From positions 62,496,001 through 62,560,000 of the forward strand of contig CM060731.1 of the NCBI GenBank assembly GCA_030704615.1: DNA of 64,000 bases, read 5' to 3'. The stretch comes from Takakia lepidozioides (lineage: Eukaryota; Plantae; Bryophyta). The translations under genes and the position numbers were made by a program. Under the pieces are notes generated by a model. It was given only the letters and a program-made list of their open reading frames with translations. It was not told where the DNA came from and made no database searches. Of this stretch, positions 7,623-48,380 are shown one piece after another. Position 1 is the stretch's first letter; each line of letters opens with the position of its first letter.

Positions 7623-8243
7623 GTAGATCAATTTTTTCAAATCACTCTGCCCTCGAGACCAAAGGGTAAAATTTCTCTTCGATACATTCAGGCCATCAAA
7701 TGAGACTAGCAGTCTCGGCCTTCCGCACCCTTCTCATGATCATTAAACCTGCAATCTTAGTACTTCAGAGGGCTTGGTACAGACCCACCCTCCCTCAAAA
7801 GGGGTCAAAGTTAAAACCTGGCTTGGCCCCTTTCTCCAAACTGACTCGATTATCTTCTTACATGAGCACAAACTCGATCTGTACAAATTAATCAACAATC
7901 TTTTGACCATCTTTGGCCCTTAACCTCTGCCCTCTGGAAACCCACATCAGAAGGCATAAAAAAGAGATATTGCAGTCTTAATCTCTCCCTCTCTCAAACA
8001 AACACAAGGGTCGGGATCCACAAAACTTGTGTACGTTAAAGACTTGTGAAGAATCAAAGGCCAATGGACTAGTGGATGGAATCAATCATTATGTACAACT
8101 TTGTTATAAAACTTGGGAGGATTGAAAGATACCTCTGAGCTTCACCAACAACGGCAAAATTGTCATCACGCCACATCACCTGAAACACTATCCCCAGGTT
8201 GCCAAAGACCAACTTCTAGAGTCCAATGTTGGCTGGAAATATG

Positions 8244-8431
8244 TGTCGTGCGTATACATATCGCTACACAACTACATCGTTGTCCAAAACCACACAACAC
8301 ATGTGCACACCACACACTAGTATACCACTAGTCCACCACTAGTCCAGCCACTAGTCCAACCACTAGGCTACAACTAGTCAGTCACTAAGCTGCCACTATG
8401 CTGCCCACTATGGCAGTCACTAGTCCACACA
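8244..8431 (-). repeat. LTR segment Y2 (terminal copy of the U3-proximal half)
   Basis: Matches 8762-8926 except ~5 transitions and a 23-bp expansion of CCACTAGT repeats. Confidence 0.92.
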
Positions 8432-8432
8432 A

Positions 8433-8926
8433 TGATAAAGAAGAAGAATACAAGCACAAGCTCATGCGAGCTCACAAAGCTGAAGCATAAACTCATGCAT
8501 ATATAACCTCATCATTCAAATACAAGTCAAGCCAAGTGCACCCCACGCCATAGGGAATCCACACTACGGCGCCATAGCTAGGCGCGGTGAGGCTCAACTC
8601 GAGAAAGATGAGTCTCCCGCGCTTGCCGTGAAGATAACCACTCCAGGGCCTAAATCTGCCTTGACCCCTGGATTGACACTTGGGCCAATCCCAAATGTCA
8701 ATATGTAAAAGCTAGCTATTTCCTACCTAGTTTCACACTAGTGGTAAAATAACTTGACAGCTGTCGTGCGCATACATATCGCTACACAACTACATCGCTG
8801 TCCAAAACCACACAACACATGTGTACACCACACACTAGTATACCACTAGTCCAACCACTAGGCTACAACTAGTCAATCACTAGGCTGCCACTATGCTGCC
8901 CACTATGGCAGTCACTAGTCCACACA
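8433..8926 (-). repeat. Complete 3' LTR (Y1-GC-X2), TG...CA in element sense
   Basis: Begins TGTGTGG just after the PPT and ends CTTTATCA. Contains the palindrome GACAGCTGTC at 8756-8765. Confidence 0.88.
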
Positions 8927-8927
8927 A

Positions 8928-8937
8928 TCGCCCCCCT
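8928..8937 (-). promoter_or_regulatory. Polypurine tract
   Basis: Minus strand reads AGGGGGGCGA-T-TGTGTGG at the internal/LTR boundary. Confidence 0.75.
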
Positions 8938-9186
8938 AGCTGGTGCTTAGGTCCCTCTAAGTCCAGGTAGCCACAAGATGTGATAGTGACCATAGCCTCA
9001 CTAAATCCTCCACCACTATCCCTACTACACTCAAACTCGATAGATCAAGAGGCCGGGTGCAAGAGTTGCCCCATCGTTAGTCGCCGTCTTGCAACCTGTG
9101 AACTTGAGCTTGGGATCTCATGTATTGACTCCTATGAGCTTGGCCTCCCATGTCTTGTTAGGTGCCTCCAGTCGTGTCCACTGCCA

Positions 9187-9335
9187 TTATCCCAAGCAGT
9201 GTGGACACAACCAATCTCCGTCAGGAACCTTCTCAAGAGGTGGTGTCAAGCATCTCATATGCCAACCCCTTGAGCATCGATCACACACCAGCATGGTGGC
9301 TGCTCCTTTGACAGACCCATAGAGCATGCACCTCA
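9187..9335 (-). pseudogene. PHD finger at the integrase C-terminus
   Basis: C-M-L-[Y]...MLVCDRCSRGWHMRCLTPPLEKVPDGDWLCPHC, a C4HC3 pattern with the second Cys mutated to Tyr. Same frame as RNaseH and integrase. Confidence 0.9.
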
Positions 9336-10470
9336 AACCTGCAGGTACCACTGCCAAGTTTGGGTCAACTCTGTCATCGACATTGGGAAGGTGACATGGC
9401 ACACAATTACGCACATAGTCCTTCCAAGTCATGCCATCCCGACCCTCCAAGATCAGGACCCCTGAGGGCAACACCTCTCGAACCCTCAGAATAACATGCC
9501 CTGTAGTAACATCCAGAGTCGTAGGAGCAGTCTGCTACAAATAAACATAGTCACCAGGGCTAAACCTCCGAACCCCAGGACGATATCCTCCACCACGTAT
9601 AGTGGCATACCTCAACGTATCACGGTGCTGCGCAATGGCAAGGTTCTCAAAAGCCATGGGCATGACTTTCTTGAACAACTCTGCACGCTGATCACATGCA
9701 CATACCTACACGTCCGGATCGTCAAGGTTAAGGACTTGAGCAGTGTCCCTACGAATGGCTACAGGCAAATCCGGCTCTCGGCCAAAGAGAAGGAAATATG
9801 GTGAGAAGGAGGCAAGTGATGTTTGTTTGCTGAACCTGTAGCCCATGGCTAACCAAGGAACCTGAAGATCCCAATCTCCTAGGTGTCCCTTCTGCAAACC
9901 ATACTTGCGCAAACCCCTCTTCACCGTCTGAACAACTCTCTCTGCCAAGCCATCGGCCTCAGGATGATCCCGAGAAGTGGTGCGGTGGTCTATCAAGGCT
10001 TTATCACACAAATCCTGAAACTCCCCCAAGAACTCTCTCCCTTGGTCCGTGAGTACCTCAGCTGGAGCACCAAATCGGCTAAGCACACGATCCAAGAATG
10101 CATATGCAGCCCCCTCACTAGCCTTGTCAGGCAATGGAACCAACTCAATCTACTTGGAGAAGTGCTCCACCATCACCAACACATATCTGTGGTGGCGCAT
10201 AGTCAGTGGCAACGGTCCTGCGAAGTCAAGACTCCACTTGTAGCCCAATCCCATGATTGGTAAAGGATGCAATTGTGGTGTAGGGGTGTTGAATGAAGCA
10301 CACACCCTGTCACACACCATGCACCTAGCCACGAACTGTTGCACCTCTGTATGCATACCACGCCACTAATATTGCCCCTGCAGTAAACTGTGAGTGCGTC
10401 GCACTCCAAAATGCCCCAACTTCTCATGAGCATGCCGCACTAACCGTGCACGCTGTGTGGGGTGAGGCAC
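9336..10470 (-). pseudogene. DDE integrase (rve) with HHCC zinc finger, interrupted by stops
   Basis: HEKLGHFG...CMVC; WSLDFAGPLP; VLTDQGREF; HPEADGLAERVVQTVK; FSPYFLLFGREP. Confidence 0.93.
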
Positions 10471-11700
10471 AATCCTCACCCGACCATCCTCCCACACTCG
10501 AAGTAGGTGTATCCTCTCCCACTTGAACCTCTTGGCTCGTTGCAGGATCCGATCCCTCTCCCTGGCAGTCATAGTGGTTGTCGTGTCTCTCGTGTGGAGG
10601 TAGTCCAACACAGCCGAATCCTCATGTATATCTATAGCACCACCTGGCTCATCACTAGCCTCAGGGTCCTCAGACACTCCGTCTACAGTCATCCCTGTTG
10701 TAGGTCCAACCTGACCTCCCGATGCCAAGATACACAAAAATGCAGATGCGTGCCATCCCGGCACCATCTCCTCGTCCGTCTCACCATGCCACCGAGCTCC
10801 AGTGTCATCCTGCTGGCTCATGCATGGATTGCGACTCAATCCATCCGCATCCCGATTGACCAAACCCGGTCGATGCACAACCTGAAAGTCACACTCCTGG
10901 AGTATGAGTGCCCACCGTGCAAGCTTCCCCGTAAGCTTGTCTGACTCCATCAACCACTTGAGTGGCTGGTGATCTGTGACAAGGGTGAAAAGATTGTCGT
11001 ATAGATAGCACCTGAAGTGTGCCACGGCCCACACTGCAGCTAAGCACTCTCCCTCATATGAGCTGTACTTAGCCTCTGCAGCGTTGTTGGAGCGGCTAGC
11101 ATAAGCTACTACGAACTCTCTTCCCTCATCATCCACCTGTGTGAGCACCGCTCCAAGCCCCAACATGCTCCAATCCGTATGCAGCTGAAAAGGACGCCCC
11201 CTGATAGGTCGTCTCAGGATAGGCGTCGAGATCAACCTCGCCTTGAGCTCTTGAAAAGCTCGTTCCTGCTCATCTTCCCACTGCCACTCCTGGTCTACCT
11301 TGGTCAGCTTGGTTAGAGCCTTTGCAATGGTACTAAATCCCTTGACAAACCGTCTATAATAGTTTGCCAACCCCATGAAAGCTCGAACTCGGCTCACATC
11401 CGTGGGGCGTGGAATTTGTGCAATGGCCTCTTGTGGCTAAAGCATACTCTCCACTAGAGAGCTCCACCAAACCTGCCTCCCAGAGATCTTGAGTCCTCAT
11501 CTGAATCAAAAACCTCTCCATGTCACTGTATCTATAGGGTCTCCGAAAGATTGGCGTGTCAGTGGCCAACTCAATACGGCTCTCTTGACCCTTCAGTGCT
11601 CCCAAGTCCTTCAAACTGAAGGCAAAGCAATTCCTGTAAGCCCTCAGGAACCACTGTATACGTCGTCTCTCTCCTCCGGTGACAATGGGTCCAATGTCAG
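10471..11700 (-). pseudogene. RT remnant (catalytic core deleted) plus RT thumb/connection and RNase H
   Basis: RT N-terminus PIFRRPYRYS...GLVELSSGEYA is joined directly (~11432) to AIAQIPRPTD-VRAFMGLANYYRRFV. No YxDD. RNase H motifs LHTDWS, VVAYASR, YEGECLAAVWA, LVTDHQPL, DADGLSR. Confidence 0.9.
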
Positions 11701-12086
11701 GCTCCCAATTGTCCTCCATAAACTGCAACCTTAAGTCCAGTGGGCTTAGAGGTAGAGGACGCGTCCAGTGGTTGCTATGTTGCAACCTCTTGAGCAATAC
11801 TCCCTACCTGCTCAGTCAGTGACAAGGCCTCATCCTGCCCCATCATCTCATCCTCAAGGACTTCCTCCACCCGAGAAAAATCCCCAACCTCATCTTTCAC
11901 CGCCACCTTGGCTGCCAACTCCCTTTGAACCTCGAGCACCTCCCACGTGTGCCATGGATGCCTGCACCCCATGGTCCTCACATGCTCGCCCCCACTCACT
12001 GCCTGTACCGTCTCGGTAGGCAGAGAGACCATCGAGGGAAGTGTACTCCGCACTCTACGTCGCTCAGCCATAGCCAAGCTGATAAT

Positions 12087-13022
12087 CTAGGTCAAGCAAT
12101 TGAGATCCATTGTTTGCCCCAACACCTGACGACATGATGCCTCAGAAAGAGACGACACCGCCGTGGTACCAGTGGGAAAACCCATTGCCCGCTCACACTC
12201 GTCAGCATTAGGCTCTACTAATTGCTGCAACTGAGCATCCCACAGGAGGCCAGGTCCACTATCCCGGAAAGCATGTGATCCTGGGAAGCTGAGCAGTGTA
12301 GGTAATGCTGCTCGTGGTTGACCCACCTTGTTGACCACTGCCAAAGGCGAACGGTCATCGTGTCTAACACGCTGAGACTGCCTCCCTGTGTCCAGAATGC
12401 TATCCACTGTGAGATGTGCTGGCCGCTGCACCCCATCAAATGCACGCTTGAGCAGTGCGGGTGGCATCAAATTAGTCCACCATAGCCGTGGACGATGAGC
12501 CCATGACCCCACTGTAGCTGCATCTAGCAACACTGCTGACCCAAGCCACGACCGGACTTGATGCACACTGGCCATCACCCTGGCCCGAGAATCGCCCATC
12601 AGTGGCACATTCTCCAAGATGTATGCTGGAGATACAGCTTGATGAATCTGCAAGTGGGGCAAAACCCGCACCATCTCCCAAAACAGACCTGACATTGAGT
12701 CTCGCAATCCATTGTCATGCCCGGCTGATGAATGCCCTTGGCAGGGCCAACCTGCCACTACCAGATCAATGGAGCCAACCCGCTCCAAATCCTGCGCCCC
12801 CAGCAACGAAATGTCTGCTGGCAAGGCCTGTTGATATCCACGAACTGCAGACACCGGCAACAATTCAGGGTACCGCTGCACCAACTGAGCAACATGGCGA
12901 AGTGAAATGCGTCGTGTTGTCTCATCCCTCTCCACATACAGGTAACACCGAACTCGTACACTTGCCTGTAACACAGCAGCCAATCCGGTGCTGATCCCGC
13001 CAAACTAGTCCAGAAGACAAAT
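12087..13022 (-). pseudogene. DNMT3-like C5 DNA cytosine methyltransferase domain inside the retrotransposon polyprotein
   Basis: Motif I ICLLD*FGGISTG (upstream of the listed ORF, same frame); II YVERD; IV DLVVAGWPCQGHS; VI YILENV; VIII AHRPRLWWTNL; IX ECERAMGFP; X RQVLGQTM. Confidence 0.92.
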
Positions 13023-13307
13023 GTCTTCATCCGGATACTACCACACAATAGGTGTGGTGTCCAATGGAGACAACTGAGGTGGTCCTGGTGCAATCCCCGC
13101 ACTCTCCTCCTCTCCTGACGGTACAAAAGCCTCCACCCAGGCTTGTTGCACCCGTCGATCAGTATCCCGCTACAAATCCTTGTTCGTGCCCCACAATGGA
13201 GTCTGAGCAACCATGGTAGGCAACTCCGCCATACCATACATGTTCTCCTACTCTCCAAGAGGTGGCACATCCTCTGAATGAGCGTTGCCCTCAAGCAACT
13301 CTCCAGG

Positions 13308-14231
13308 TCAATTCACTACCGCTGTGAATGCTGATAGTATCGGCATCTTGCCTCGTTGGGCAACCGCAACTCCTCCTATGAACGTCACAGGGAGCTGCAC
13401 ACGCCGGCCCTCCCCTGACTGCCATCCAGGCCTATAGGAAGCTGACTCCTCCCAAAAATCTAGGGTGAAGCCCATGGGGTACAACACTGCCCCACCAACT
13501 AGGACATCGTACGAGACCGCGTCTGTCACAATGGCCTTGGTTCGCATTACTGAGCCATCTGTAGGGTGATCCGGCCGTAGTCTGATAGCCAATTCACGCC
13601 GTGTCATGCCCTGAGCCTGCTCCGATCCTCCCAAAGCCGTCTGTATCTGGAAAGGACAAGGCTCCATATCTGCCTCCGTGAGGCCCAAGCCTGCAATATC
13701 AGCTCTGCCTAACATCAATGGCTGAGCTCCCGAGTCCAACAAGACCCGCAGTGGCCGGTACCTCTTGCCTTTCGGTCCACTCAAACAGAAAATGCCATCC
13801 TGGTTGCCAGGTGTAACCATGGCGCGCTCAATGGCTGGACTAGCTGGCAGCTCCATCAACCTGGCAGCTACAGCTTGCCATGGCGCCACCGTGGCAGTCT
13901 GCACCCTCAAATCCGAGGATCCCTCCGGCACTACACCTCCCACTATCTCCGCAGAAGATGAAGTAACCTCCCCACTCTCACAGAGTGTAGCTGCCAGCCT
14001 GAACACCTCAGCTGGTCTAACCCCCGGCGTCGCAATCATGGTAGCCGAGAACAATGGAGCCTGGTACACAGATGTGGCCGCTCCTAGCAGCACACTAGCT
14101 GCCGTAGCCTTGGCAATACTAGGTAGTGGTGCTACCCGTGTAGCTCTCCCCAATGGCATAGTAACCTCCACCTCGGTAACAGTCGGGCGAGAACTAGGTG
14201 CCATGGATGGCGTCGACACTGTCTCCGCCAA
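13308..14231 (-). pseudogene. Retropepsin aspartic protease region
   Basis: RVLLDSGA active site and YDVLVGG C-terminal motif. Confidence 0.88.
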
Positions 14232-14276
14232 TGTGAATGACTGAGGAAGCCTAGTCTGACGACTTGCCTCCCCATG

Positions 14277-15941
14277 CTATGGATCCAACTCCACCTCTGC
14301 ACCTCGTGGCTCAGGAACTCGTGCTGCTCCTCGAGTCACGGCTGCAGCAAACTCCACCTGCACTAGTGGTAGTGCTGCTCCACACATGAATCCCATGCCT
14401 CCCATATCTCCTCCCTCAGGAGTAGGAGGTGGACCATCCGGCCTTAGAGCCGGTACCACCTGAGCTGTAGCCATGGCAGCGAGCCTCTGCTCTAGCTGCT
14501 GAAGCCGGTTGGCCATGCCTTGGTCAACACCCTGACCTCCGCGTCCTTGGCCATGTTGAGCTTGCCCTTGGCCTGCACCTCGTGGTTGGCCACCTCGTCC
14601 TCTCTGGGCTGCTCCACCTCGCCCCCGGCCACCATTGTTTCCTTGGAACTGGCCTGGGCGCAACTCAGGATGCAAACCATAACACTGGGCCTCTCCATGC
14701 CCGTGCTTGCCACAATGCCCACACTGCAACTGTGCAGGCTGTGCATGTGCCGGCCCTTTGCCTCCCTCTGGGCAATCCTTCTTGACATGGGGTCCTCCAC
14801 ATGTCCAGCACACCACATCCGCCCGTTGTTGGCCAGCAAATGAAAGGAGAGACCCCTGCATCTGAGGTCCTCTCTGCCCTTCCCTGAGCTTCACCTGAGC
14901 CCCCTTGTTGCCTTGAGCACGTTGAGGTAGTGGTTGGCTAGGAGCACCACTACCCCGTGGCGTCTCCTTAGCAAATCGCACCATGACCACTCGTTCCTCC
15001 ACCATGTTGAGCTCTATCCGCTCTGCCAGCAAAAACACATTTGCTAAGGTGGGTTGGGCCGCTTGTAGGAGAGTTGCATCCCGCACCCTTCTCCTCAGCT
15101 CTTTGTCCAATATCCCATACCAGAATTACACTGCCTGAGCTTCTGTAACCCCTTGGGTTACATTTATCAAGCGCCTCATGCGAGTGAAAGCCTCCCTCAA
15201 GCTCTCGGTCGGCTTCCGTTGGAACTCTTGCAAGCTCCGCAACTTCTCTGTCCTCACCCTTTGGTAGTTCCCTCTCAACTCTTCGAAGAACTCCACAACA
15301 GGGTTGAAGGCAGGCACGGGTACTAGTGCTGGTGCGGTAGTGGCTTGGGTGGACGTCGTAGCTACTGTACCACCAGTCCCACTAGTCCCACTGCTACTTG
15401 CTGAAGCTGCCGGTGCAGCGGCAGGTGTAGCCACTGCCCTCGTGGCTCTAGTGCCCCTAGTGATGGAGACATAATCGGGTGACCAGTACATTGTCCACTC
15501 CTCGATCTCAACCTCATGCCCCCGCCTGAACTCATGGTAATCATCCATAGGCGGCCCCTCAAGGTGCTGAAACAACCCCTTCCATGCCATGAAAGGCGTA
15601 AATAGTTGTGGAGTGCGCATTTGCTGCAAATCACACCAACTATCAAACTCTTGGATAAAATCATCCAACTCGATGGTGCCCACCGCCCTAGAGTACCTTC
15701 GTGGCCCCTTGGTAGCTCCATACATCTCCTCCATTGTGTCCCACAACAATGGCAAAGAAACAACTTGCACCGCCGGTATGAGTCCTCCTGATTCACAATC
15801 CGAATCAGAACCTTCCGTAGAAGACACATGAGGTGAAGGTGGCCTAAACCGCACACCTCGTCTTGTGTACCCACTAGTATTGCTAGTGCTCGAACCGGCA
15901 CTGTCCCCAGCAACTAGTGGCACCTCCGTGTTGACACTCAA
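14277..15941 (-). pseudogene. Gag with two zinc knuckles (in-frame stop at 15126-15128)
   Basis: FQRKPTESLREAFTRM homology region; CWTCGGPHVKKDC and CGHCGKHGHGEAQC; RGG-rich tail. Confidence 0.88.
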
Positions 15942-16639
15942 CCGATCATGAACATGTCCCTAACCCCCTCTCCACAAGGTAACCGGGTAGAGAACCTGTT
16001 GCGGCTTATGGTTTGGAATACTAAGTTCCTAACATAGCCTACACCTGTACCTACATCCACCGCAAGTACTCCTATGGTTGGCTGGTCATCACCTCCAACC
16101 TCACCACAGGAGAAACAATGATGGTCTGGCTGGTCATCACCCCAGCCTCACCATCGACAGCATGCTCTAGGACTGGCCGGTGATCAAATCCGGACCAATC
16201 ACCTATAAAAAACAAGCGCCCACACAAAACTAGCATGGCACACAGTCAAGCATGCAGGTATGGAGGGGATCCAAACACAAGAAATCAGAACGACAACTCC
16301 CCCACACCAAAAACAACTCCACGGTGTGGCTCTTGCAAGGACACCCCAGCCCAAACCCGGACTGACTCTTGCCTCCACCTACGGAAAGGTCTTGGCCTAA
16401 TGAGAGGGTGGAAACTACGAGGAAGAGAAGCTAAAGCAATGCCTAACCCCAGCATGCCCTCATCCCAACACTCTTCCTCTCCTCTCTTCCCTCACTTGCA
16501 TGACCATGGGAATATCATGAAGATACTCCTCAAACCGCCCTCCACGAGCTTCAAAATTCGGCCTTCAAGACCACATACCAGTCCTTAGGCAGTCCACCAG
16601 TGCCTCCACAAGTCAGCACATGCCATCCACAGCTCAACA

Positions 16640-17385
16640 CGGGTCACCACAGACCAGCAGAGGCCCACACAGCTCACAGGCCACAGCCTGTCACAGCCCT
16701 ACACAGGTCACAGGGTCACAGCCCCACAGGCCGCAGCCTGTCACAGCCCATCACAACCCCAAAGGCCACAGGCACAGCCTGTCACAGCCCTACAAAGGTC
16801 ACAGGGTCACAGCCCCAAAGGCCACAGCCTATCACAGCCCCTCACAGCCCCATAGGCCCACAGGCACAGCCTGTCACAGCCCGACACAGGTCACAGGGGT
16901 CACAGCCCCAAAGGCCACAGCCCCTCACAGCCCGTCACAGCCCCACAGGCCACTAGGCACAGCCTGTCACAGCCCCTCACAGCCCCTCACAGCTCGCCAC
17001 AGCCTGTCACAGCCTGTCACAGCTTGCCACAGCCCATCACAGCCCATCACAGCCTGTCATAGCCCCACAGGGCACAGGGCACAGCCTGTCAAGCCCCTCA
17101 CAGCCCGTCACAACCCCACAGGCCACTGGGCACAGCCTGTCACAGCCCGCCACAACCTGTCACAGCCCCTCATAGCCCGTCACAGCCCCAAAGGCCCGTG
17201 ACAGCCCCGAAGGCCACTGGCGCAGCCCGTGACAGCCCCAAAAGGCCACCGGCACAGCCCCTCACAGCCCATCACAACCCCCAAGGCCACCGGCGCAGCC
17301 CGTCACAGGCCCTCACAGCCCATCACAGCCCCGAAGGCCACTGGCACAGGCCCTCACAGGCCTTCACAGCCTGTCACAGCCCCAT
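16640..17385. repeat. Degenerate CACAGCC/TCACAGCC minisatellite in the element 5' leader
   Basis: Dozens of ACAGCC units with ~11-bp sub-periodicity. Confidence 0.9.
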
Positions 17386-17824
17386 CCATGGCCGCTCAGG
17401 CAGTTTAGCCATTTCTCCAAGGGGTTTAGCCACGCCAAGCTAGGGTTTGTGTCTCTTGGACTCTAGGCTTCTTTCCACCGAGCTATGGCGGCTGTGAGGA
17501 AATCAGCAAGGTATTCTTGCTCTTTCGGCTCCCACACACCACCATAGTAGCCCTAAGCCATGAGGTGGTTGCCACAAACCAAGCCTTCTTTCTCACTTAG
17601 CCTCCCCAAACACGCCACTAAACTCAATGGCAAACAACCAAGCCTTACTGGTTTCCAGCCCTTGTGAGCACTCATTCAAGCGTTTCCCTTGGCTATAGCA
17701 TCTGTCTTAGAGCCTATTCCAGCCCCCTACACCTGTCACTTCAAGAGCCATGCTCTATCTAGGCTTGAGGTTGAAACCCCAACTCAGAACACGCTCTACA
17801 AGTATCGGACTGTCACATAAGAGC

Positions 17825-18230
17825 AGATCAGCCCCTTACCTTCTCTTCTAGTTCTCTAAAGCTTGAAAACAAAAGCCCAATGGACTGTAGGCATGCTCCA
17901 CACATGCCCCACTCTCACCACCAGAGAATCAGCCCCTTTGCTTTCTTTCTTGCACCCACCAACCTGAAAATACACGCTTCAGCGGGCTGGAAGCATGCTC
18001 CACACATGCCCTACAGGGAAACCAGCCCCTTCCTTCCTTTCTTGCACTCCCAAACCTGAAAGTACAAGCCTTCAACAGGCTGAAAGCATGCTCCACACAT
18101 GCATTGCTCTCACATAAGGGAAGTCAGCCCTTCCTTCTTCCTTGCTTGCCCTCCAAGCTTGAAGATGGTATGAGCTGAATACATGCTCCACACATGCAAC
18201 CTCTTCACACAAGAGGTATCAGCCACCTAT
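17825..18230. repeat. Four degenerate ~95-bp tandem repeats in the element leader
   Basis: (G)CATGCTCCACACATGC at 17891, 17993, 18086 and 18181, each followed by CAGCC(C) and a pyrimidine tract. Confidence 0.8.
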
Positions 18231-18900
18231 CTTGGCTCCTTGGCTCCTTGATGCTCTCTAAGACAAGACTAAGCACTCCACAGCCTTTGCCAAGCTCCCG
18301 AAACCCTAAGGCTTACATTTCCAGCCACAAGACACTCCTTTTGTGGTGCAAGAGCTCTTCTTCCAAGCTCTGAAACCCTAGGTGCACATTCCATGGCCTT
18401 GCCGCACCTCTTAGCTCCTGTTCCAGCCTTGCTCTTGCCATGACAAGAGCCCTCTCAATGCTGAAGCTCGAGATTGAAACCCACTCTCAACATACTCCAC
18501 AAAGTGCACTGATTTGCCCCAAGCCAAATCAGCCATTTCGCTTGGTCTTGCAATCCTTCACACAATGAAAGCTCGCATTCCCAAGTCCAGTTCTCAGCTT
18601 TGCCACCAAAGCCAATATAACCTGCTCTTGACTGGTCCTCTTCCCAATCGTGCTTGCTCATGCATGTACACAATCTGAAACCATCAAGGTGCTCTGGAAT
18701 TACCTGCAGTATGGTGCTTTCATCTCTGAAGCTGAAGATCGAATGCCAAGGTTTACCACCTCGTAACCCACATCACCTCCGCTTCTAACAACCAAGAGCT
18801 CCACGGTGCTCCTTGCATAACAACCTGGTTTCTCTCATTCTCAAGCAAAAACCACAAGTGCTACAACTAACTCGTATCTGGCACTCATAGATACGAGCTG

Positions 18901-18912
18901 ATCTTTCTCGAG
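18901..18912 (-). promoter_or_regulatory. Putative self-priming primer-binding site
   Basis: CTCGAGAAAGAT immediately follows the LTR-ending CA. It is complementary to (A)TCTTTCTCGAG inside the LTR (19078-19088; 8598-8609). It does not start with TGG. Confidence 0.65.
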
Positions 18913-19239
18913 TGATAAAGAAGAAGAATACAAGCACAAGCTCATGCGAGCTCACAAAGCTGAAGCATAAACTCATGCATATATAACCTCATCACTCAAA
19001 TACAAGTCAAGCCAAGTGCACCCCACGCCATGGGGAATCCACACTACGGCGCCATAGCTAGGCGCGGTGAGGCTCAACTCGAGAAAGAAGAGCCTCCCAC
19101 GCTTGCCGTGAAGATAACCACTCCAGGGCCTAAATCTGCCTTGATCCCTGGATTGACACTTGGGCCAATCCCAAATGTCAATATGTAAAAGCTAGCTATT
19201 TCCTAGCTAGTTTCACACTAATGGTAAAATAACTTGACA
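18913..19239 (-). repeat. 5' partial LTR (segment X1)
   Basis: 327 bp with about 8 differences from 8433-8759. Starts TGTCAAG and ends TTTATCA. Confidence 0.93.
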
Positions 19240-20615
19240 TATGAGCAAAGCCTTGATGTCAACTAAGATTCTAAAACTTATATCCTTCTTTCTACAAAGC
19301 CAACTCCACAAAGAGGTTGCAGCAAGGAGCGGGAACGCGTGCCATTTGTTACAGAACCTTAAGATCATGTCCAGATCCTTCTGGCTCTGGGGCAGTACAA
19401 AAAGAAAAGGGCTTCTATCCCATGTTTAACAGTACGTTAGCGAGAGTGGAAATATCATAGCCGTGCTCAAACTTTGCATCGTAGGGCAGCAGAACTGGAA
19501 CTCACATGTGGAATGAGAGATTGTGGAGAGTGTTCGATTGAGTATCACGCTGATTCTCCGGAAGGAGAGATAAAGTAGCGGGTGAACCTAAGATGCAAGA
19601 ATAAGGGTTATGAGAACATTGGCTAATCATGTGATGACTATCATGCTGCAACTCAGGAAGGAAGGTCATTGGAACGCAAGTGAAAGCAGGAACTGACCTT
19701 GTCCAGCTGCACTTCTACTAACTATGGTCCAGTATAAGGAGTCATATGGCCTCATGTGTCCTTCATCTTTGAAGGTATGTAATGAACAACCAAATGAACA
19801 ACTGAATCGGGGTGTGCTATATTTCTTTCTCAATATTTACTACTGCTCTTTATGTTGCTAGAAATCTCATGGACCTGTATATGAGAGGGTGATATGTGGC
19901 CGATGTGTTAGAAAAGCAACTGCGGAAATGGGTGGGAAGTACTGCGGCCAGACCACGACGCCCCCTATCTCTGCAGGGAAGAACATCTCGATTGGGTTTC
20001 CAAGCAGGCGGGCTTACCTAATATATTTCATGTTAATGTTAAGAGTAGTTTTATACTACTCAATGGCTTTTTGAATGGACATTGTCAATTTTTCTACATC
20101 TTCAATGAGAGAGAAACTGAAGCAAGATGTTGATCCCTGGCAAAGTTGAAGGCGAACTGCAGATATATGTGGCGCAAGACACCATAAAAAATGGTGGGAA
20201 CATGCCTGTAGCTTAACAGGATACACTAGCTGACTTTCTACTATCTCCACCACGGACCCCATGCTCAGACGAGTTGCAGGTATGAGCATTGCATGCATGC
20301 ATATTTCTTTCTACCTCTGATCGATTCAATTGTGTCATCATTCATTAACTGTGTCAGCTGTATCATGTCATCATTCCTGCAAAATTACAGTCAGTCATGG
20401 TGCTCAGTAGTTACTAATCAACACTTAAAGGGCAGGATGGCTCCTGAAGTCTGAATACAACGACATATAGATCTGCCGGTTTCTTTGCCAAAATGGTACA
20501 ACACCACAAAATTTCTCTAGGGCAGGGACGGCAAGTACCTAGACCATGCATAAGAGTAAGAGGTATTTAATATGGGGTCTACAGGAGGGTGTACCTGGAA
20601 CAAGTGCAACCTGGT

Positions 20616-24423: not shown

Positions 24424-27400
24424 TTGCAAAGAACCATTGTAGAGAGCAAAGAAAATCTAAGTGCAGAAGTGGAGAGGAGGGGAGATCTATCTGTAGAGCA
24501 GCTTGGTCCTTTTGCCCGTCTTCACATGCTTCCAGTTGATATCCTTATCGAACTCAGGAGAAGCGGAAGAGGAGGGCCCTGTGGTGTTGCCATTGAGGGG
24601 GGATTTCACCAGGCCAGACACAACCTCCCGCTCCCGTGCATGTGCAGATGACGTCGTTTCTGCCCCAAGTGCCCCTGAAGGGACTGATGAGGGTATGCTG
24701 CCGCTCTGGGTGTTTGACGATGCCTGCATGCACTTTTTCCCAAGCCAGTTTAGCTGCTATGGTAAGATCAAAAAATATGTTTGTGATTGTAGCAGTGGCC
24801 GTGGAATTGACATTGTCCAAGGACCAGGAACATCTAGCTTTCCATAGATGCCATAGAGTGTATCCCCTCAAGGCTTCATAAACTGGACAGTCATTTGCTA
24901 TGGATTTGGTTGTCCTGTCATAGTTGAGAAGTATTGCCACCTGGTTGGAGGGGAACACTTCCCATGAAGTACTATAGAACGAGTCAATAAATGGCCATGA
25001 CAGACGGGGTGCCTGACAATGAGTGAGGCAGTGTTCCAGTGTCTCGATGGTCCCTGATTGACAGCATGAGCAAAGCAGGGCCTCCGGGAAATTGAGAAAT
25101 TGCTCGACCTTGAGCACCCTGTTTGCTACCTGCCAGAGGAAGGCGCTAATTTTTGCGGGCTTAGATTTTTCCAAATGAGTTTCCAGATGTCTCCCCAATT
25201 TTCGTCGTGGAAGTATTCATGCTGCCATCTTGCATTCCATTTGCCTGGAAGGGATTTGGCATTTGCAAGGGCCCTATATGCCTTCTTGGCCGAGTAGGAG
25301 AAGAATCCTAATTTGGTGTCCCCAAATTTCCACTGCCACTCTCCAGGGTCTATTTGCAGATCCTGGAGAGGCATGCCACCAATCCAGGCAAAGGAGGCAG
25401 AGAGAAGCCAAGGAAAAGGGGGTATTCCCACTGGGGCAGAAGGGTTGAAATCTTTGGCAGGGGAGGACCACAGGCAGATTCTTGCCGGCAAGGCATCTAT
25501 GCTGCAGAGACTTTGGGTAGTGTTTGAGAAGAGTGTCAAGAACCCTGAAAAGGTATCTACTTTGAATGCATAGCCAGTTAATATATCATGTTGCACCTCT
25601 GTAATGTACATTATCAAGTAGGGTTTTCCAAAAGCCACAACCCAGTTATGAGGAGAATGCAGGGGCTGACCATTTCGCATGATCAGTTTCCAGGAGTCTA
25701 GGATATTTGTGACAATGGAGTCGATGCCGGATGCCAGCCTTCTTATACCCAGGGCCGCTTGAAGGGATTCAGTGGAGCTTTCCCATAGGTGGGCAATCTG
25801 AGAGTATCCTCTGGTTTCCCACTTTGCCCACCTCTTGGCCTGAGTGCGCTGCAAGGGGGATGGAGTAGCCTCATTGAGAAAGAGGTGTTGCCTCATTGTC
25901 TCTTGGAAAGATGTAGGTTCTGATTTGAGTAGGAAGGGTCTAAATTTATTCCATGCTTCCCAGATTGATACCCAAAGGGGTGAACCAATGGATTTGTTGT
26001 CTAAACCCTTGAGTTATCCACCTCATAGAGGGTCTCCATTGGGTGTGACTTAGTGGGGAGCTGAGTGAGATAGCCTGTCCGACCAGCAATTTCCACCAAC
26101 CCCCCTCCGGCCCAAGGAACCTTGGTAACCATTTTCCCAAGAGTGCCAGGATTTGAGTTGCTGGATCTAGCACTCCCAGTCCTCCTTTTTTCTTTGGAAG
26201 GCAGATTTGCTTCCATGTGACCTGTGGCCTCTTGTTATGGGTGGTTGATTGGGCACCCCAAATGAAGTTCCGGATGCACTTCTTAACCTCTCCTAGAAAT
26301 TCAGGGTCAGGTTACCAGATGGCTGCGAAATACCAGATCCCTGCCTGGAGGATCTGATTTGCAATGAGAGCCCTACTTGTTATGGTTAGAAAACGTGAGC
26401 CCCAGTATGCCAGCTGTCTTTTAAGAGCTGTCAGCGTAGGGCCCATTCTCTGCTTGTCAGTGAGGTTGATTCCGAAGGTGTGGCCCAAGAGAGTTGTGGG
26501 TTCATCCTCCTTCAGCCAGAACAGTCCAGAGTCATTTCCCCATGTGGGATACCGAGCCTATGGTGGATTTGGATATATCCCCAACCAGAAGGGCTTTGGT
26601 TTTAGACCAATTCACTCTGAAGCCGGAAACTTTGCAAAATTGCCCCAGTGTTTCTTCTGCAGCCTGAAGCGTAGATGGAGTGGCATCCAACAGCAAGCAG
26701 GTGTCGTCAACAAACATTGAGTCCTTTACTTGGATCGAGATTTGTGCCACGGGGTTCAGTATGTTCAACCCTTGAATGGACAAATTTCTATCAAACAGGT
26801 AACCCAGGGCGTCTGCTACGAAGAGGAACAGGAATGGTGCAAGTGGACAACCTTGTCTCACTGATCGGTGAAGCTGAAAGGGCTTGGAGAGATGACCGTT
26901 AACTGTTACCCTGCTGGTTGAGTGTTGCAGTAGGATCATGACCCAATTACGGAAGGTCTGGGGCATCCCCACCTTAGCCAGAATGTCAAGAAGAAAGCCC
27001 CAATCTACTTTATCGAATGCCTTTTCAAAATCCAATAACCAGAGTGCCAGAGCCTGTCCTGATGCCATTGCAAAGTAAGCTGCTTCATGAGCTAGCAGTA
27101 CATTATCTAGGATGTATCTCCCCTTAATGAAACCCGTCTGACCCGTTCTAATCAGTGCGGGAAGGAGAGGCTGCAGACGGAGTGCCAGAGCCTTAGCTAT
27201 TATTTTGTAGGTCACATTCAAAAGAGTGATTGGTCTATAGTTGTTAATGTCTGCGCTGTCTCCCTTTTTGAACAACAGAGTTATTACCCCTTGGGCCATA
27301 GGGGAAGGCATGATCCCGTCGGATTTAATCCTATTGGCCATAGAGCAGAAGTCCTGGGAAATGTGAGGTCACATTGCCTTGTAGAACTCCACTGGCATGC

Positions 27401-28860
27401 CGCCAATGCCCGGGGCCTTTTTGTTATTTATTTTGTCTAGGGCCTTCCCGAGCTCAAGAAGAGTAAAGTCAGCTTCCAGATCTTGAGACAGGTGAGGCTG
27501 AAGTTTACAGGGCACAGCCGAGAGCACTTCATCCAAATAATCACGATGATGGGGTTCCTTCGGATCCGCTTGGAAGAGTTTGGCAAAGTGATTGAACGAT
27601 GTCTCACTCATATCTTAGGGTCGGAGGATTTAGTGCCCTGGTGAACCCTCTAGAGAGATCTTTTAAGTTTGACCTTCTCGAAGAAGTATTTAGACATCTT
27701 TTCTCCTTTTGCTAACCAGTTGATGCCCGCTTGCATACGCATTTTTTGCTCTTGCTTGAGCTGGAACATGTCAAGGTTTTGGCGGGCTTCCAGGTAGGTT
27801 TGGAAGGTATGGTCATCGCATGTGTTGTTTTCTATTTGTTTCTGACTTACATTCAGGCACTTTTTGAGGGCCAGAACGCGTTCCTTTTGGGCAGCTGATA
27901 TATCTCTACTCATGTCCTGACTTGCCTTACATGCTGCTTGAAGCTTGAGGGTAAATTTGATAATAGGGCAAGATATGTCGTTGGCTGTCTGTTTCCATGC
28001 TAGTTCCAGGCCTAACTTGAAAGAGGGGATGAGGAGATGTGAAGTGTTGAGCTTATAGATACCTCTACCTCTCCTACTTTTACAGGGCATGGAGAGAGAG
28101 GCTGAAACAATGGCATGATCGAACCCATGAGCAATGGGTTCTTGCGGGTGACGGCTTGCTCCATTAGAGATTGAGAGTGAGATATATATTCTATCCAATG
28201 TGGCCATGCAGAGGTCCTGGAGGGTGCGGTTGTTTGTCCAAGTGAAGAAAGGGTTATTCCTTCCCGGGGGGCTAGGATTTGAGTCAATTTCCGAAAGGCT
28301 ATGTGATTGGATGAGAGAGAGCCAAGAGACCTCCTCATCAAGGTTAAGATGATGAGATGCCAAACCTCGTCTATCTTGGTTGTTGTCTACCATATTGAAA
28401 TCTCCTGCCAGAATCCTGGAGTGGGCTACTGGTTGCGAGGACATTTTATGGTTGATGAGAGCCCAGAGTTCAGCATGTTCTACGTAGGAGTTCGGAGCGT
28501 AAATGTTAACAAAGCCAAGAGGGTCAGGTTGGCTGGGAAGTTTGAGAGAGCAAAACTGGACTCGACCTGGCTCCCAAACTTCCTCCCTGATGATGAACTG
28601 AAATAAGGAGGGTGCCAGGAGGATGGCAGTACCCCCCCTTGAGCCGACACGGGAAGGTTTCCAGAGGGCAGCAGATGCTGGCCAGAGTTGGTCAGAGAGG
28701 TTAGAGATTTTTGCTGGCAGAGCTTGTGTTCTTGGATGAACACGATAGTCTCCGTTCGTTGGAGAGGTGCCAACCAGGTGCGTAGCTTGATTTTTTTGTG
28801 TTTTCCTGGTCAGAGCCAATCCCCCTAATGTTCCACGAGTGAATACTAACCTGCATCTTG
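24424..28860 (-). pseudogene. LINE ORF2 (endonuclease, reverse transcriptase, zf-RVT), frameshifted
   Basis: SWNIRG, VFIQEH, VNIYAPN, LAGDFN, LDRIY, FDH; NYRPITLLN, LDFEKAFD, VRQGCPLAP, FVDD; CSCCQSGTIETLEHC. Confidence 0.92.
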
Positions 28861-29512
28861 AGGTATAGACAGGCTGAGAGGGAATTTCTCAATTGATGGC
28901 CTGGTGTGAGAGTATTGGAACTTAGTTCTTTTGTCGGAGGGAAGAGGGGATGAGACCCATTTGTAGTTGACAGGTGCTACTGGTGTGGGGTTACTAAGCT
29001 GTATGAACAGGACTTGGGTGAAAGGGTTGAGCGGTTGGTGATGGTGGCAGTCGTTGGGAAGGGTCAAGAAACGAGCCGAGGATATTGAGTCTGTATAGAT
29101 TTTCGTGGGTGCCTCCGTGAGTTGGAGGAAGAACTCGGAAAGGAGGATAAGGCCAAGGGAAGTTGGCGTTTCTGGAGATAGGGTACCAACAGACATTTCT
29201 AAAGCTAAGTCGACGAGATTGACAGGGACCGCTATAGATGGTAAGACTTTGCTTGTTGAGCTGGCATCAGATTTAAGACACACAATTTTACACCTATTTT
29301 GCCAGGTAGAGAAGGGAGAGAACACCAAGAAGGGAATGGGGTGAAGGTAGAGGCTTACATGAAGAAGGGGTGACTGAGTGGGAAGGGGCGTGGGCGAGGG
29401 CAGTGAAAGCACATGCTGGACAGGGTTGCTTCTCAGCTGACGGGTGCTGCGATTCCGAGAGAGGAGATTTGTTAGGCTTGTCGTGGACATGTGTGCGCGA
29501 GCTGGGCTCCAT

Positions 29513-31450
29513 TTACGCTTCTGGAGATAAGGGAGGGTCGGGGCCGATGGGGTTGTAAGAAGGCTGTTGCTGATCCGGGAGCCTTCGAAGCTCGATGGCC
29601 TCGTTCTGTTCACGAACCTCGGCTTCCGGCGTCGCGTGGAGGAGAGTGAATGAAGAATGGATGGTGTCTCTTGCTCGAATGGTTGCCAAGTTGGTGGTGG
29701 GGGGCTGGTCGAAGGGGGGGAGATGAATCCAGAGGCCCTTGCCTTGGGGGTGATTTCCGAGCAGCATTTTTTCCTCGATTAATGCTAGAATTTGGGTTGA
29801 TGGAGTAAGATCCGAAACCAGGCCAGGATACTGTTCAACGTAGGCTCCCCAGGTGATGACTGTGTGGGCCTGCAGTGAATAGTTGGGTGAGTACTTCAGA
29901 ATAATGGACTGAATTCTCTCCCTAAGAGTGGGGATGGGGTCCCCATCGATAGGGCAGGTAGCCATGAAGTATCTCACGTCCGCCGTTGTGATCCAGTGTG
30001 ACTCCAGAGCGATCCCTTGTGGGGCAATGGCAAGGAGTGCTGGTTGTGGTGTCCTTTGAAAAATGAGGGGAGTGATGCATGTTGCCTTTGGTGCAGACCC
30101 ATGTAACAATTGCGAGCAGCTCCTCAGGGCCAAACTTGGAAATGACCGGAGCGTTGCACAGTTCCTAGCAATAACAGGGTTGATTGCAATTGTAGTTTTT
30201 CCTTCCTTTGGTGTAGTCCCTGATGATATCTGCCTTGTGTGGAAGTGTGCCGGGGGTTTGCTAGAGCTAGCCTTCGGGATAGAGTTGTGGGCTTGATCGG
30301 ATCTGGGGCGGGGTGGTGGGGCAACTCCAGCCATTTGTGGATTTGGTGCTAATTCAGTAGCCGCCGCTTCTGCCCTCATGGGGTCCACATGGTCTTTAAG
30401 CCTCTTTCCGGGGGGAGAGGAAGAAGATTGAGGTAGAAAGGAGTCCCAATTTCCTTGGTTGGGAAAGAGAGATCATTGAGTCTTTCTGCTTCTTTGTGGA
30501 CTGCAGCTGCTGGGGCTGCCGCATCAGGGTCTTTTCGATTCGACTGGAATTGTTTTGATTTGAGATTGTGAGCCAGAGCATGTGCCTGAGAGCTGGGGGA
30601 GCCGTGCATGGAGGTTCTCTTGTGCTTAGCTTTTGGGCAGTTGACCCTCAGATGGCCGGTCTGGCCGCAAGTGTAGCAAGCGGAAGATGAAGTGTCTTCA
30701 GTGATTTTTACTGAGAAATAATTACCTTCCCTGTCAATTGGCAGACGAATAAATTCCGGCAGTATTGCATCAGCTGGCATTGAGACCACAATCTTTGCAA
30801 AACCCGTATCATGAATTTTCGATGCAATTGTTACTCCTCTCCACGCTGGATGTTTTTTGAGAGCCTTTGTGCACATCTCTGGATCAAAGATTGAGAGGCA
30901 GCCTAAGAAAACTCCAAAGTGATTGCCTATATCAGGTAGGCAGAAGAGATACTGATCCGGGATATATGGAAGAGCTAGCTAAAATCCTGGGGGCCCATAC
31001 TATCCCGTTACGGTTGCCCAGTGCCGCTGACCAGGGGAAAATATTAACGTTGAATCCCAGGAGGTGTGGGTTCAATGAGAGGGCTCTATCCGCTGCTTCT
31101 TTTGTACCAAGCAGGATGGAATAGAAGCCTTTGCCCCTGGAGTGGCAAAACTGCTGCTTTATGTCCCCTGATCCCCCCAAGTGTTTGATTGCCCATTCTC
31201 TTGCTATATCCCTGTCCACTTTTTTTCCGGGGAAGTGCAGTAGCACTCCCAATCCCAGTATTTCGGTGACCATGTCATTGACGAAATCAAGGTCCACATC
31301 AACCAGTGGATCATTCTCGGACATTGCAAGCTGCAGAGCCGAGGGTGCTTCCGATCGCTCCGGCATGGTGTCTGCTGCCCCTTCCATGATTCCATTGAAG
31401 CTGCTTTCCACACTGTGAGAGTTGCCAATGAACAGGCCCTCCAGCCTCAA
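29513..31450 (-). pseudogene. LINE ORF1 (DUF4283-like region, CCHC knuckle, extra C-terminal region), frameshifted
   Basis: GVLLHFPGK..REWAIKHLGG..GKGFYSILL; CYTCGQTGHLRVNC; collinear with 35662-37342. Confidence 0.8.
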
Positions 31451-32425
31451 TCCTCATTACCTCTGAAGATAGGCATGACCTGGAATCTTTGTGGATCACC
31501 AATCAAGATGTGTTAAGTTTTATTGAAAAGTGCCCCCCCAACAGCAACCCGCAATGCATGCTCATGGCCAAGATCCAGGACTTCTTTGCCAACCATCTAC
31601 CATGCTATCTCATTGCCCCCTCCTCTGTCGTCACCTGGGGGTTGCACTGATGCAGTGGGCGAGTAATTTGGACTGGGAAGTGCGACGAGGAGGGATCGTG
31701 AAGGTGGAGCTGGGGAGGTCGCTCCACTGTCGATGCCAATTTGGTTTGCGCCTGGTGCGCCCCGTTCCCGAAGAGGGTTGTGATTTGCGAGAGACTGGAA
31801 GTCGAGTGTAGTTGTGTTGTCGGCCTTTAGCCGCTCCCATACGGCTACTGCTTGGGTAAGGGTCATGGAGAAGGATGGTGACAATACCAAGTTGACAGGG
31901 ATTAGTACAAGAGGCAGATCTGCAAAAGGCAGATCTTCCAGCAGGCTTTGGGGACAGAAGAGAGATGATGTTGATTGAAGCTAACGGGGAGAGATGCAAG
32001 TCAGTGGTGTATTGAACGACAAGGAGCGTGAGGGAGAGGTGAGGTAGAGGAGACGATGAAAGAGAGGGAACAATGCTGAGGAGGGGTATCAAGAGCGCTT
32101 GAATGGGGTAGAGTTGCCGTAGCTTGCAGAGGTTGTCGGCTGCCTATTAGTGAGAGATGAATGAGGGAGGTTTGGGCCTGTGGGGGAGAGGGAATCCTGA
32201 GTGTACAGCTGCTTGGGCGGCTGGAGTTATGAAGGTGATAATAAGCAAGCTTTGATGAAAGCTTCAGAGGTGGTCGGGGTGGGATGAAGGGAGAAAGTTC
32301 ATCCTCTCTTTGTGGGGCAAGAGAGTGGTGAGACAGAGGCGAACGCATGGAACCTTTCTTCTCACATTCATGCCCTCTTGCAATGTGAACTCTCTCCTTG
32401 CTTCTTGTTGTCCTGACAACATGAA

Positions 32426-32429
<4 letters not shown>

Positions 32430-32466
<37 letters not shown>
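32430..32466. repeat. (CT)n microsatellite
   Basis: About 18 CT units. Confidence 0.9.
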
Positions 32467-32468
<2 letters not shown>

Positions 32469-33315
32469 AACCTTTGCTATGGCTGGTCCTAGATATCTCT
32501 TAAGATAATTAGAAGGACATAACCTAGCCATCCCTAAGATGCAACATTTACCCTGAGCAGTACACTAATTAGGGTTAGTAATAACTCTTAGTGTATAACA
32601 CTTTAAAATAGGGAGATGATGGCAAAGGGAAAATAGAGCCATGTGAAGCTGTCGGACTCGTTACTCTTTAGAGTTTTGAAGCTACATTGACCGTTGTTAC
32701 GGGCAGCCTTGCTTTTATGAGCAGCAAAACTCAGAGCTATGGGATGAATTGGGTCCTGAAGTACAAGGAGCCGAGAGCAGGAAGTATCATTCACTCTTTG
32801 TCTTGCAATTGTCCTCTCCTGCACAAGTGGATACTCGTACCTCAAGGTCCTTACAGGATATGGCACGAATGTAGGTAGTACGTCGTGAGGTGCACTGTGT
32901 TTAGAAGCAGGTTGTGACGTATTGACAAGCATGGATGGCATGAATGAAAGGACGCTGTATGGGACAGGGTTCAGAACCGGGCTGAGACAAAGAGCATTCG
33001 TTTTAGAGTTTTGATATTTCTCTTATCTGAGAAAGGTAGGCGTCTGGGGGCAGTGTATTGAGAGCTTGAGGGATCAAAGATGCAGATTTCTCTTCGAAGA
33101 GACGATGGTGGGAAAGGATCCGTTGGGCTTCTCTCACCTTCACTCTCTCTCTCACCGCGAAACGCGGAGCTACATCGCGCCCCCCGGTCTCTCCCTGATT
33201 TTCTTAAAATCATAATATTGTAGACAAACAACTAAATTTGAATAATACCGATTTTTGACAATAATTGATCATCTAAATTGGTTGCGATCTACATCTACCT
33301 ATGTATCAATGTCTG

Positions 33316-47415: not shown

Positions 47416-48380
47416 TGTTAGAGGACTGTCGGGGACTTAGACACTTATACGGGATCTGTAGGGTACCCTTAGGGGTTGTAGAGGGGGGTTACACAGCCCG
47501 TCACAGCCGTCACAGTCGTCACAGCAGTCACAGCCGACACAGCCGACACAGCCAACACAGCCCGTCACAGCCGACACAGCCGACACAGCCAACACAGTCC
47601 GTCACAGCAGACACAGTCGTCACAGCCAACACAGCCCGTCACAGTCGTCACAGCCGACACAGCCCGGCACAGCCACACAGCCAGTCACAGCCCGACACAG
47701 CCAAAACACAGTCGCACAGTCAGTCACAGCCCGTCACAGTTTCACACAGCCAACACAGCCCGTCACAGTCGTCACAGCCGACACAGCACAGCCACACAGC
47801 CAGTCACAGCCCGCACAGCCACACAGCCAGTCACAGCCCGACACAGCCAAACACAGTCGCACAGCCAGTCACAGCCCGTCACAGTTTCACACAGCCAGTC
47901 ACAGCTTGACACAGCTGTCACGATCATAGGGAACGAAGAGTAGGACAGGGAACGACTGTGGGGAACAACACCTGCGAAGGGAACATGTTAGTTCACAGAC
48001 GACGGTTAGTGAGGGAAACGGTTAGAACCACGGATAGGAAGATAAAGGGAGAAACGGGGAATGGAGGGATATCATTCGGAGGAGGACTTCTTGGTCATGG
48101 AGGAGAGGGGATCGGGCAGAGATGAAGAACGGAAGTGAAGATAGAGAGATGATGAGTAGATGCTTGATATATGCAAGGCTGTAATGATATTGTAGAGTAG
48201 ATTAGAGACACAATGGCTTCGGCCTGATACCTGATAAATCATAATCAGATACTTTTACGATACAATCACACTGTGTAGAGAGATCTGAGTGAAGCTGTGG
48301 AATGAATGGATGAGTTGATGGAATCCAATAGATTGATAAAGCAAACTGATACTTAATTATCAATGGTAAGATAGCTAACA
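47416..48380 (+). mobile_element. Putative 3' LTR of a second LTR retroelement
   Basis: PPT GAGGGGGAAGGGG (47400-47412), then TGTTAG...CTAACA (6-bp terminal inverted repeat). No partner LTR seen. Confidence 0.6.
47490..47920. repeat. CACAGCC/CACAGTC minisatellite within the LTR
   Basis: About 40 degenerate 9-11-bp units. Confidence 0.9.

Follow-up and report, generated by a model that had tools for sequence, protein, structure and literature searches.

Probable self-priming signal and split, permuted repeats in a Gypsy-type retrotransposon with a cytosine methyltransferase domain from Takakia lepidozioides

The 64-kb stretch of Takakia lepidozioides DNA analysed here (the window) contains a Ty3/gypsy-type element with a C5 cytosine methyltransferase (DNMT) domain and a PHD finger, in which the primer-binding site (PBS) next to the 5′ repeat is complementary to a site inside that repeat. 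This priming signal is real and under selection, and the element very probably primes its own reverse transcription in the manner of Tf1, a reading supported by compensatory change in three families. The likely consequence is that the element starts its own copying without a tRNA. Self-priming is a known mechanism that is here extended, with the backing of compensatory changes, to a plant Gypsy lineage lacking a chromodomain. An earlier interpretation made from the letters alone, referred to below as the sequence-only reading, is partly supported: it read the priming correctly, but its start site is unproven and its account of the element incomplete, as it overlooked the split, permuted repeats that change the implication of the priming site. 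The self-priming site fixes one end of the cDNA and the polypurine tract (PPT) the other; with both ends fixed, the permuted repeats lead to definite predictions, of one particular joined intermediate and of one particular cut by the integrase.

The PBS, CTCGAGAAAGAT, lies on the minus strand at 18912–18901 and adjoins the CA end of repeat A1, the 5′ repeat. Its reverse complement occurs in A1 at 19078–19088 (11 nt, or 11 of 12 over 19078–19089) and in the second copy of the repeat, A2, at 8598–8609 (12 of 12), so that the complementarity reported in the sequence-only reading stands at the lengths given there. That reading had also found no TGG-type tRNA PBS, and none is present 0–5 nt past the end of A1; in all three families the PBS begins with CT. 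The predicted self-primer (19078..19089, minus strand) would have its +1 at 19089 and be cut after 19078. A complement of at least 11 nt placed 0–5 nt past the repeat was obtained in 11 of 20 000 dinucleotide shuffles of A1 and, as a control, at least 11 nt of complement was also present in 60 of 18 172 sliding 327-nt windows of the 64-kb sequence; the duplex between PBS and A exceeds chance expectation. The site also falls within the prediction rule of REXdb for self-priming (at least 10 nt, 0–5 nt after the LTR). Rfam gave no matches in 18700–19400 at E values up to 1 and ARAGORN no tRNAs in the 64-kb window.

Relatives for comparison came from a scan of metagenome contigs in which 80 of 81 confirmed loci were kept; L031–L094 were searched for repeats with duplicates of one place merged, 37 loci of at least 5 kb were mapped for domains, and L095–L110 (weak, E 1e-7 or worse) were left out. 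L088 and L091/L092 have no usable ends, while L066 has the PPT and the palindrome described below and ends before the primer. A scan of viral sequences returned 30 loci that matched only part of the DNMT domain (30–48% identity over 49–174 residues), all of which were dropped.

Compensatory change between the two sites, which the sequence-only reading had proposed looking for across families, is present. The PBS sequences compared, from the window family, family 2 and family 3 (L063), are CTCGAGAAAGA, CTCAAAGAACT and CTTGACAAGAA, a comparison of three families only, the third of which rests on one collapsed contig. PBS positions 1–11 differ at 5, 4 and 7 places in the three family pairs, and all 16 differences are compensated so as to stay Watson–Crick. 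The primer of each family pairs with its own PBS at 11 of 11 positions and with those of the other families at 4–7 of 11, while the A repeats of the three families are unalignable, sharing only short matches at chance level. An alignment of 10 copies has changes on both sides in 6 of 12 pairs, a count reached in none of 500 shuffles, although these six two-sided changes represent one family contrast and not six independent events; L063, which MAFFT misaligned at the primer, is counted there as unpaired and was paired instead by anchoring on the repeat end. Among 12 A1 copies of family 2, Watson–Crick pairing is found in 6–12 copies at positions 1–11, in 4 at position 12 and in 7–10 at positions 13–16. 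Two further A1 copies of this family are missing the primer region, as apparently is L049, which is among the 12. The A1 repeats of L060 and L061, and apparently that of L049, lack both the primer and the inverted repeat surrounding it, and A2 of L061 still has both; the loss from A1 in these old copies was perhaps by slippage at the hairpin.

The whole element occupies 8244..19239 on the minus strand, with ends TGTCA...CGACA, and is flanked by a 4-bp target-site duplication, CATA in element sense, at 19240..19243 on its 5′ side and 8240..8243 on its 3′ side. The window copy is dead, with stops, frameshifts and a missing RT core. Repeat A1 (18913..19239, 327 bp), which is predicted to hold the promoter, R and U5, is followed by the PBS and a 5′ UTR in which 11 copies of the 10-mer TGACAGGCTG form a tandem array (16647..17383). 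Read in element sense this array resembles the palindrome GACAGCTGTC at the B|A junction, and its copies are possibly decoys or loading sites for the integrase, or a matter of chance. A similar CACAGCC array at 47463–47916 follows a 500-residue frame with no significant Pfam hit, and the segment 45876–47929 that contains them is probably another mobile element.

The coding region, again on the minus strand, begins with gag (14280..15959; weak Pfam match to Retrotrans_gag, one in-frame stop) and an aspartyl protease region (13311..14276; weak Pfam match), followed by the methyltransferase domain (12090..13004; PF00145, E 6.8e-12), an N-terminal remnant of RT (11432..11713) and a segment (9190..11430) encoding the C-terminus of RT, RNase H, a DDE integrase (H2C2, rve) and a C-terminal PHD finger; about residues 116–298 of a related pol protein find no match in the window copy. 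The canonical Ty3/gypsy order of gag, protease, RT, RNase H and DDE integrase is thereby kept, with the DNMT domain between protease and RT, and the nearest solved structure is that of Ty3. Pfam returned no chromodomain at E up to 0.1, and no tyrosine recombinase in the window ORFs scanned and the two long ORFs of L063. The DNMT domain is 73–74% identical to Calypogeia and Marchantia proteins, 47–68% to Sphagnum and 44% to KFL_009030040 of Klebsormidium nitens. A set of GC-rich relatives (L088 at 3120–4058; P0050 and P0052) carries the domain downstream of RNase H and ahead of the integrase, or immediately in front of the integrase; it has either moved or been captured twice. The element family is clearly abundant in the host: summed contig depth in run X1 is about 2.5e5–1.2e6 over the element against 70–160 in the flanks, a depth that is not a copy number.

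What the sequence-only reading called an LTR is a real repeat of 327 bp, but it is only half of the terminal repeat, the 3′ end being B1-A2-B2. The full layout is A1-PBS...PPT-B1-A2-B2, in which the polypurine tract CTAGGGGGGCGA (8928..8939, minus strand), whose conservation extends to all three families, lies immediately before B1 (8762..8927), after which come A2 (8433..8759) and B2 (8244..8432), all in the same orientation. A1 and A2 differ at 8 places over 327 bp, and B1 and B2 by 5 substitutions and one 23-nt indel. Two equal LTRs are not found: the ends are of the form A...B-A-B or A...B, the PPT precedes B1, A2 has no PPT before it, and A1 and A2 share no flanking duplication. The 4-bp duplication flanks A1 and B2 on their outer sides, and TG...CA ends with a duplication in the range of 4–6 bp, as in canonical Ty3/gypsy elements, are thus present. 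The B1|A2 junction is the palindrome GACA-GC-TGTC (8756..8765), the halves of which are the element ends and which is the predicted cutting (att) site of the integrase. The A2|B2 joint at 8433/8432 brings together the base before the PBS and the base after the PPT, with a 1-nt ambiguity due to one shared A.

The same arrangement recurs outside the window copy. In the window family, contigs of runs X1 and X12 bridge A2|B2, and 34 X1 contigs extend past the B end into unrelated flanks; contig joints close to A|B were left uncounted, being too mixed with misplaced B1 and B2 matches. Contigs of X12, tentatively an RNA run, also reach into flanks and were set aside for transcript ends, and in the raw RNA runs X13 and X14 (organism B), sampled at about 1 in 100 of each, no reads fell on 8200–8960. 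Family 2, with a DNMT domain about 60–70% identical, has B-A-B ends in L061, L065, L079 and L087, and B-A running to the contig end in L050, while ends in which PPT and B pass directly into flank are present in L036, L051, L052, L053, L060 and L077; L059 stops one base past B and L067 is rearranged. Family 3 (L063, 50% identical) has the same PPT, palindrome and order of A and PBS on its collapsed contig. A 4-bp duplication is found in all eight elements with both ends present, the window included, two of these being pieced together from loci that overlap in pairs. A spacer of 2 nt separates B from A in 8 of 8 places, and the integrated ends are at the internal CA-NN-TG palindrome. Both priming boundaries fall at the A|B joint in families 1 and 2. 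This joint is of exact length in four of six cases; the other two keep primer remnants, L061 having filler that ends in the last PPT bases and L067/L068 about 11 PBS bases with 4 others, remnants that are single copies, one of them rearranged. In 14 PBS-bearing A copies none is preceded by B, while 5 copies are of the A...B-A(-B) type. One further arrangement is seen in L034 (1676–2014), where a full A repeat is followed by a second copy of protease-region sequence in place of PBS or B.

In LTR elements the right end of the cDNA is set by the PBS and the left end by the PPT. The true LTR here would be B+GC+A, because ordinary two-transfer reverse transcription is expected to give a linear B-A-internal-B-A. 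This linear form was not seen integrated, there being no B before any of the 14 PBS-bearing A copies, and the integrated form would be a permutation of it, generated by joining the cDNA ends and opening the palindrome. We consider it probable, if by a limited margin of confidence, that self-primed cDNA is joined end to end and then cut internally by the integrase. The RNA would start at the site in A, fold back onto the PBS, be cut after base 11–12 and prime reverse transcription as in Tf1; after the two transfers the A end would be joined to the B start in a circle or concatemer, sometimes with PBS or PPT remnants retained; and the DDE integrase would cut CA^GC-TG to leave CA-3′ ends with 2-nt 5′ overhangs like those of processed retroviral ends. 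Only A-internal-B-A-B would be able to copy again, A-internal-B insertions being dead ends. Tf1 cDNA is described as often keeping PBS or PPT at its ends, and HIV circles as keeping them at the junction (PMC11042837), a retention that matches the two imperfect A|B joints. HIV integrase is likewise described as cutting the 2-LTR palindrome, and circles as able to feed integration (PMC1905944; PMC4372172).

The relatives do not fit a symmetric circle in every respect. Such a circle should also yield the mirror product A-B-A-internal-B, of which none was seen against five of the A...B-A(-B) type, although recombination between the neighbouring A copies of this product could remove it. About half of the family 2 ends are A...B, which a symmetric circle does not explain. 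The six in which PPT and B meet the flank are explicable without a circle, by linear cDNA cut at both palindromes or by recombination between B1 and B2, and A...B ends would also follow from a 1-LTR circle. Taken to its furthest, the joined-and-re-cut route would describe a streptophyte-wide Gypsy lineage with obligate end-joined cDNA, circular or concatemeric, in which the integrase passes over the ends of an ordinary two-LTR cDNA to cleave instead at an att palindrome within the LTR, and the 2-LTR circle is the only propagating intermediate; on this broader claim our judgement is evenly divided. If it is true, what is a dead end or side route in retroviruses would be the sole propagating form in an element with its own cytosine methyltransferase and PHD reader.

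For the split-repeat elements PAT and Ngaro the proposed model has the junction inherited from the RNA, with the internal B-A copy serving as a splint. Applied here, the element would still be self-primed, but B2 would be transcribed, the A|B junction would come from the RNA and the internal B-A would splint the cDNA ends with no host end-joining. This alternative, the best placed of those considered though unlikely, draws on a layout of A1-B1-A2-B2 as described for PAT and Ngaro (PMC4157794) and on the exact length of most A|B junctions, and it would account for the absence of A-B-A-internal-B. Against it, a primer at the end of A1 would, as we reason, be unable to copy B2, which lies 3′ of the strong-stop landing site, and the coincidence of the A|B joint with both priming boundaries, together with the two joints that carry primer remnants, weighs the same way.

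With self-priming as the preferred reading, the predicted +1 of the RNA lies near 19089, and RNase H would cut near 19078. The start site near 19089 put forward in the sequence-only reading is consistent in position with TATA boxes in two families, TATAAAG 31 nt upstream of the predicted +1 in family 2 and TATAATG 29 nt upstream in L063, but around −30 the window family lacks a canonical TATA, having TTATCTT at −28, and the duplex can run past the predicted +1. The TATATAT within A1 (about 18979..18985, minus strand), downstream of the primer, had been named as a competing promoter; the motif is there, but TGTGTAT stands at apparently the same place in family 2, as judged by eye, and it is apparently not a TATA in that family. 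The hairpin AGCTCGTATCT-N9-AGATACGAGTT that follows the PBS (18869..18899, minus strand; arms 18889–18899 and 18869–18879, 11 bp with one G–U) is present as had been described, but has no counterpart of the same sequence in L063 or family 2.

Folds of the RNA from the predicted +1 give the duplex in the window a probability of 0.81–1.0 for 8 pairs, the three PBS-proximal pairs being lost to another helix in the window's own fold. In L063 the values are 0.79–1.0 at positions 1–10, in L065, L050 and L074 at least 0.6 at all 11, and in L070 they drop at the last two positions. The PBS duplex closes a multiloop in these folds; immediately downstream of the primer a helix forms, with GCTTGA as the partner in the window, L070 and L063 and other partners in some copies. 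Tf1-type elements reportedly have a U5-IR structure next to the primer duplex. In all three families an inverted repeat spans the primer site (19067..19103, minus strand, approximate, by position in A; folds of the A2 copy, L065 and L063), its 5′ arm lying upstream of the predicted +1; the primer sits in its loop in the window and in its stem in the two other families. In the 3′ copy this inverted repeat could hide the primer-identical sequence from the PBS.

Pairing that extends beyond the predicted +1 means that the duplex does not fix the RNA start. The RNA may instead start some bases upstream of 19089, the primer being longer (15–20 nt) or cut from the surrounding hairpin, an option that we rate as rather improbable. 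It is favoured by a match of 15 nt in L063 and of 16 plus 3 nt in L070, by a run X12 contig whose PBS differs at position 13 in a way that extends the match (by eye), and by the inverted repeat that spans the site in every family. A start giving a primer of 11–12 nt is, however, what the TATA spacing of 29–31 nt and a pyrimidine-A initiator fit in two families; 8 of 12 family 2 copies leave position 12 of the PBS unpaired, and about 11 PBS bases are retained in L067/L068. In L067 (= L068) the terminal A piece sets in at position 180 of A, which, to within 2 nt of microhomology, is the base immediately following the primer, and it ends with the PBS remnant before B, which fits the span of strong-stop DNA, although this is a single aberrant copy. 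The region around it (L067, 12518–13414) consists of inverted pieces of A and of the gag/protease region, a short UTR piece, then A from 180, the PBS remnant and B, all within one 4-bp duplication, and looks like an aberrant reverse-transcription product that was still integrated.

Priming at the PBS by a host tRNA half or other small RNA, with the match in A as a by-product, is very unlikely: half-tRNA priming exists in plants, but the survey that describes it (PMC6317226), as far as its available text goes, finds such primers in Ty1/copia lineages only, and the three different PBS sequences each track their own internal site, with no TGG and, at E up to 1, no Rfam match around the PBS. An ordinary two-LTR element, with a chance match and B2 as a one-off duplication or assembly error, could appeal to the matches of at least 11 nt in the control windows, but is contradicted by the recurrence of B-A-B ends at four independent places in the metagenomes, where the outer ends are flanked by duplications, by the X1 and X12 contigs across A2|B2 and from the B end into flanks, and by an A2 without a preceding PPT, and is scarcely credible.

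Among known systems the closest is KnitGypsy-Dnmt3 from the alga Klebsormidium nitens (PMC5890265; de Mendoza et al., 2018), which likewise has an intronless Dnmt3-like domain upstream of RT in a Gypsy polyprotein (P0056, with the order DNMT-RT-RH-INT, is 44% identical over the DNMT domain). The legend of Fig. 4 in that paper calls the repeats DIRS-like and the domains Gypsy, and the likeness in repeat layout is drawn from this legend only; the accessible text of the paper deals with the alga only and is silent on primer, PPT, target-site duplication and mode of integration. The present element, by contrast, is very abundant in a land plant and has relatives in liverworts and Sphagnum. Streptophyte Gypsy-Dnmt3 elements are otherwise mentioned only in passing in a 2026 preprint and a 2025 paper, in the parts available. 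No account of the priming, ends or integration of Gypsy-Dnmt3 elements was found in the literature searched, where the permuted layout is noted once, in the KnitGypsy-Dnmt3 legend, with neither priming nor mechanism; subscription papers and Repbase lay mostly outside the search, and these features may have been described before.

The first 11 bases of Tf1 serve as its primer (PMC7175516), and in plants Tcn1 chromoviruses and TAR copia elements have been predicted to self-prime (PMC6317226); the latter survey, in its available text, states that Tcn1 is the only plant chromovirus clade to do so and gives tRNA primers for the non-chromovirus Phygy and Selgy. The present element resembles Tf1/sushi and plant Tcn1 elements, as these sources present them, in having no tRNA PBS and, within the 5′ repeat, a stretch of about 11 nt that can pair with the adjoining downstream site, but differs in its PHD finger in place of a chromodomain, its DNMT domain and its permuted repeats. 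With PAT, Ngaro and VIPER it shares the split direct repeats A1...B1-A2-B2 as outlined in PMC4157794, but unlike these it has a DDE integrase, a protease, a PBS, a PPT and 4-bp duplications, no tyrosine recombinase was found in the ORFs scanned, and its methyltransferase is of the C5 cytosine type. The retroviral 2-LTR circle, as described in PMC1905944 and PMC4372172, offers a precedent, in that a DDE integrase there cleaves joined cDNA at an internal CA...TG palindrome; in HIV this is a side route with the cut at the end-to-end joint, whereas here it would be the main route, with the palindrome inside the LTR and away from the joint. Troyka (PMC12440569), another Gypsy-like element with unusual ends, was considered and rejected, being described there with paired LTRs, CG...CG ends and 3-bp duplications, and in animals only; the present element has none of these end features, and its layout is unrelated to that of Troyka.

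Whether the integrase can truly use joined LTR circles as its substrates is an old question that becomes testable in plants with sequenced genomes such as Marchantia. Search tools that rely on paired LTRs would mis-bound this family, which is very abundant in its host.

Elsewhere in the window, a broken L1-type LINE with zinc knuckle, endonuclease, RT and zf-RVT lies at 24554–32564 on the minus strand. At 59775–62195 a LINE-type RT fragment (60572–61855) stands within a 708-bp inverted repeat at 97.7%, accompanied by a perfect one of 83 bp; this structure is a recent fold-back or inversion. PPR repeats occur on both strands at 52158–53682 and 56127–58265, where a 712-residue frame encodes a PPR protein that bears the E motif characteristic of RNA editing factors in organelles; the best named matches, at up to 58%, are in clubmoss, ferns and gymnosperms.
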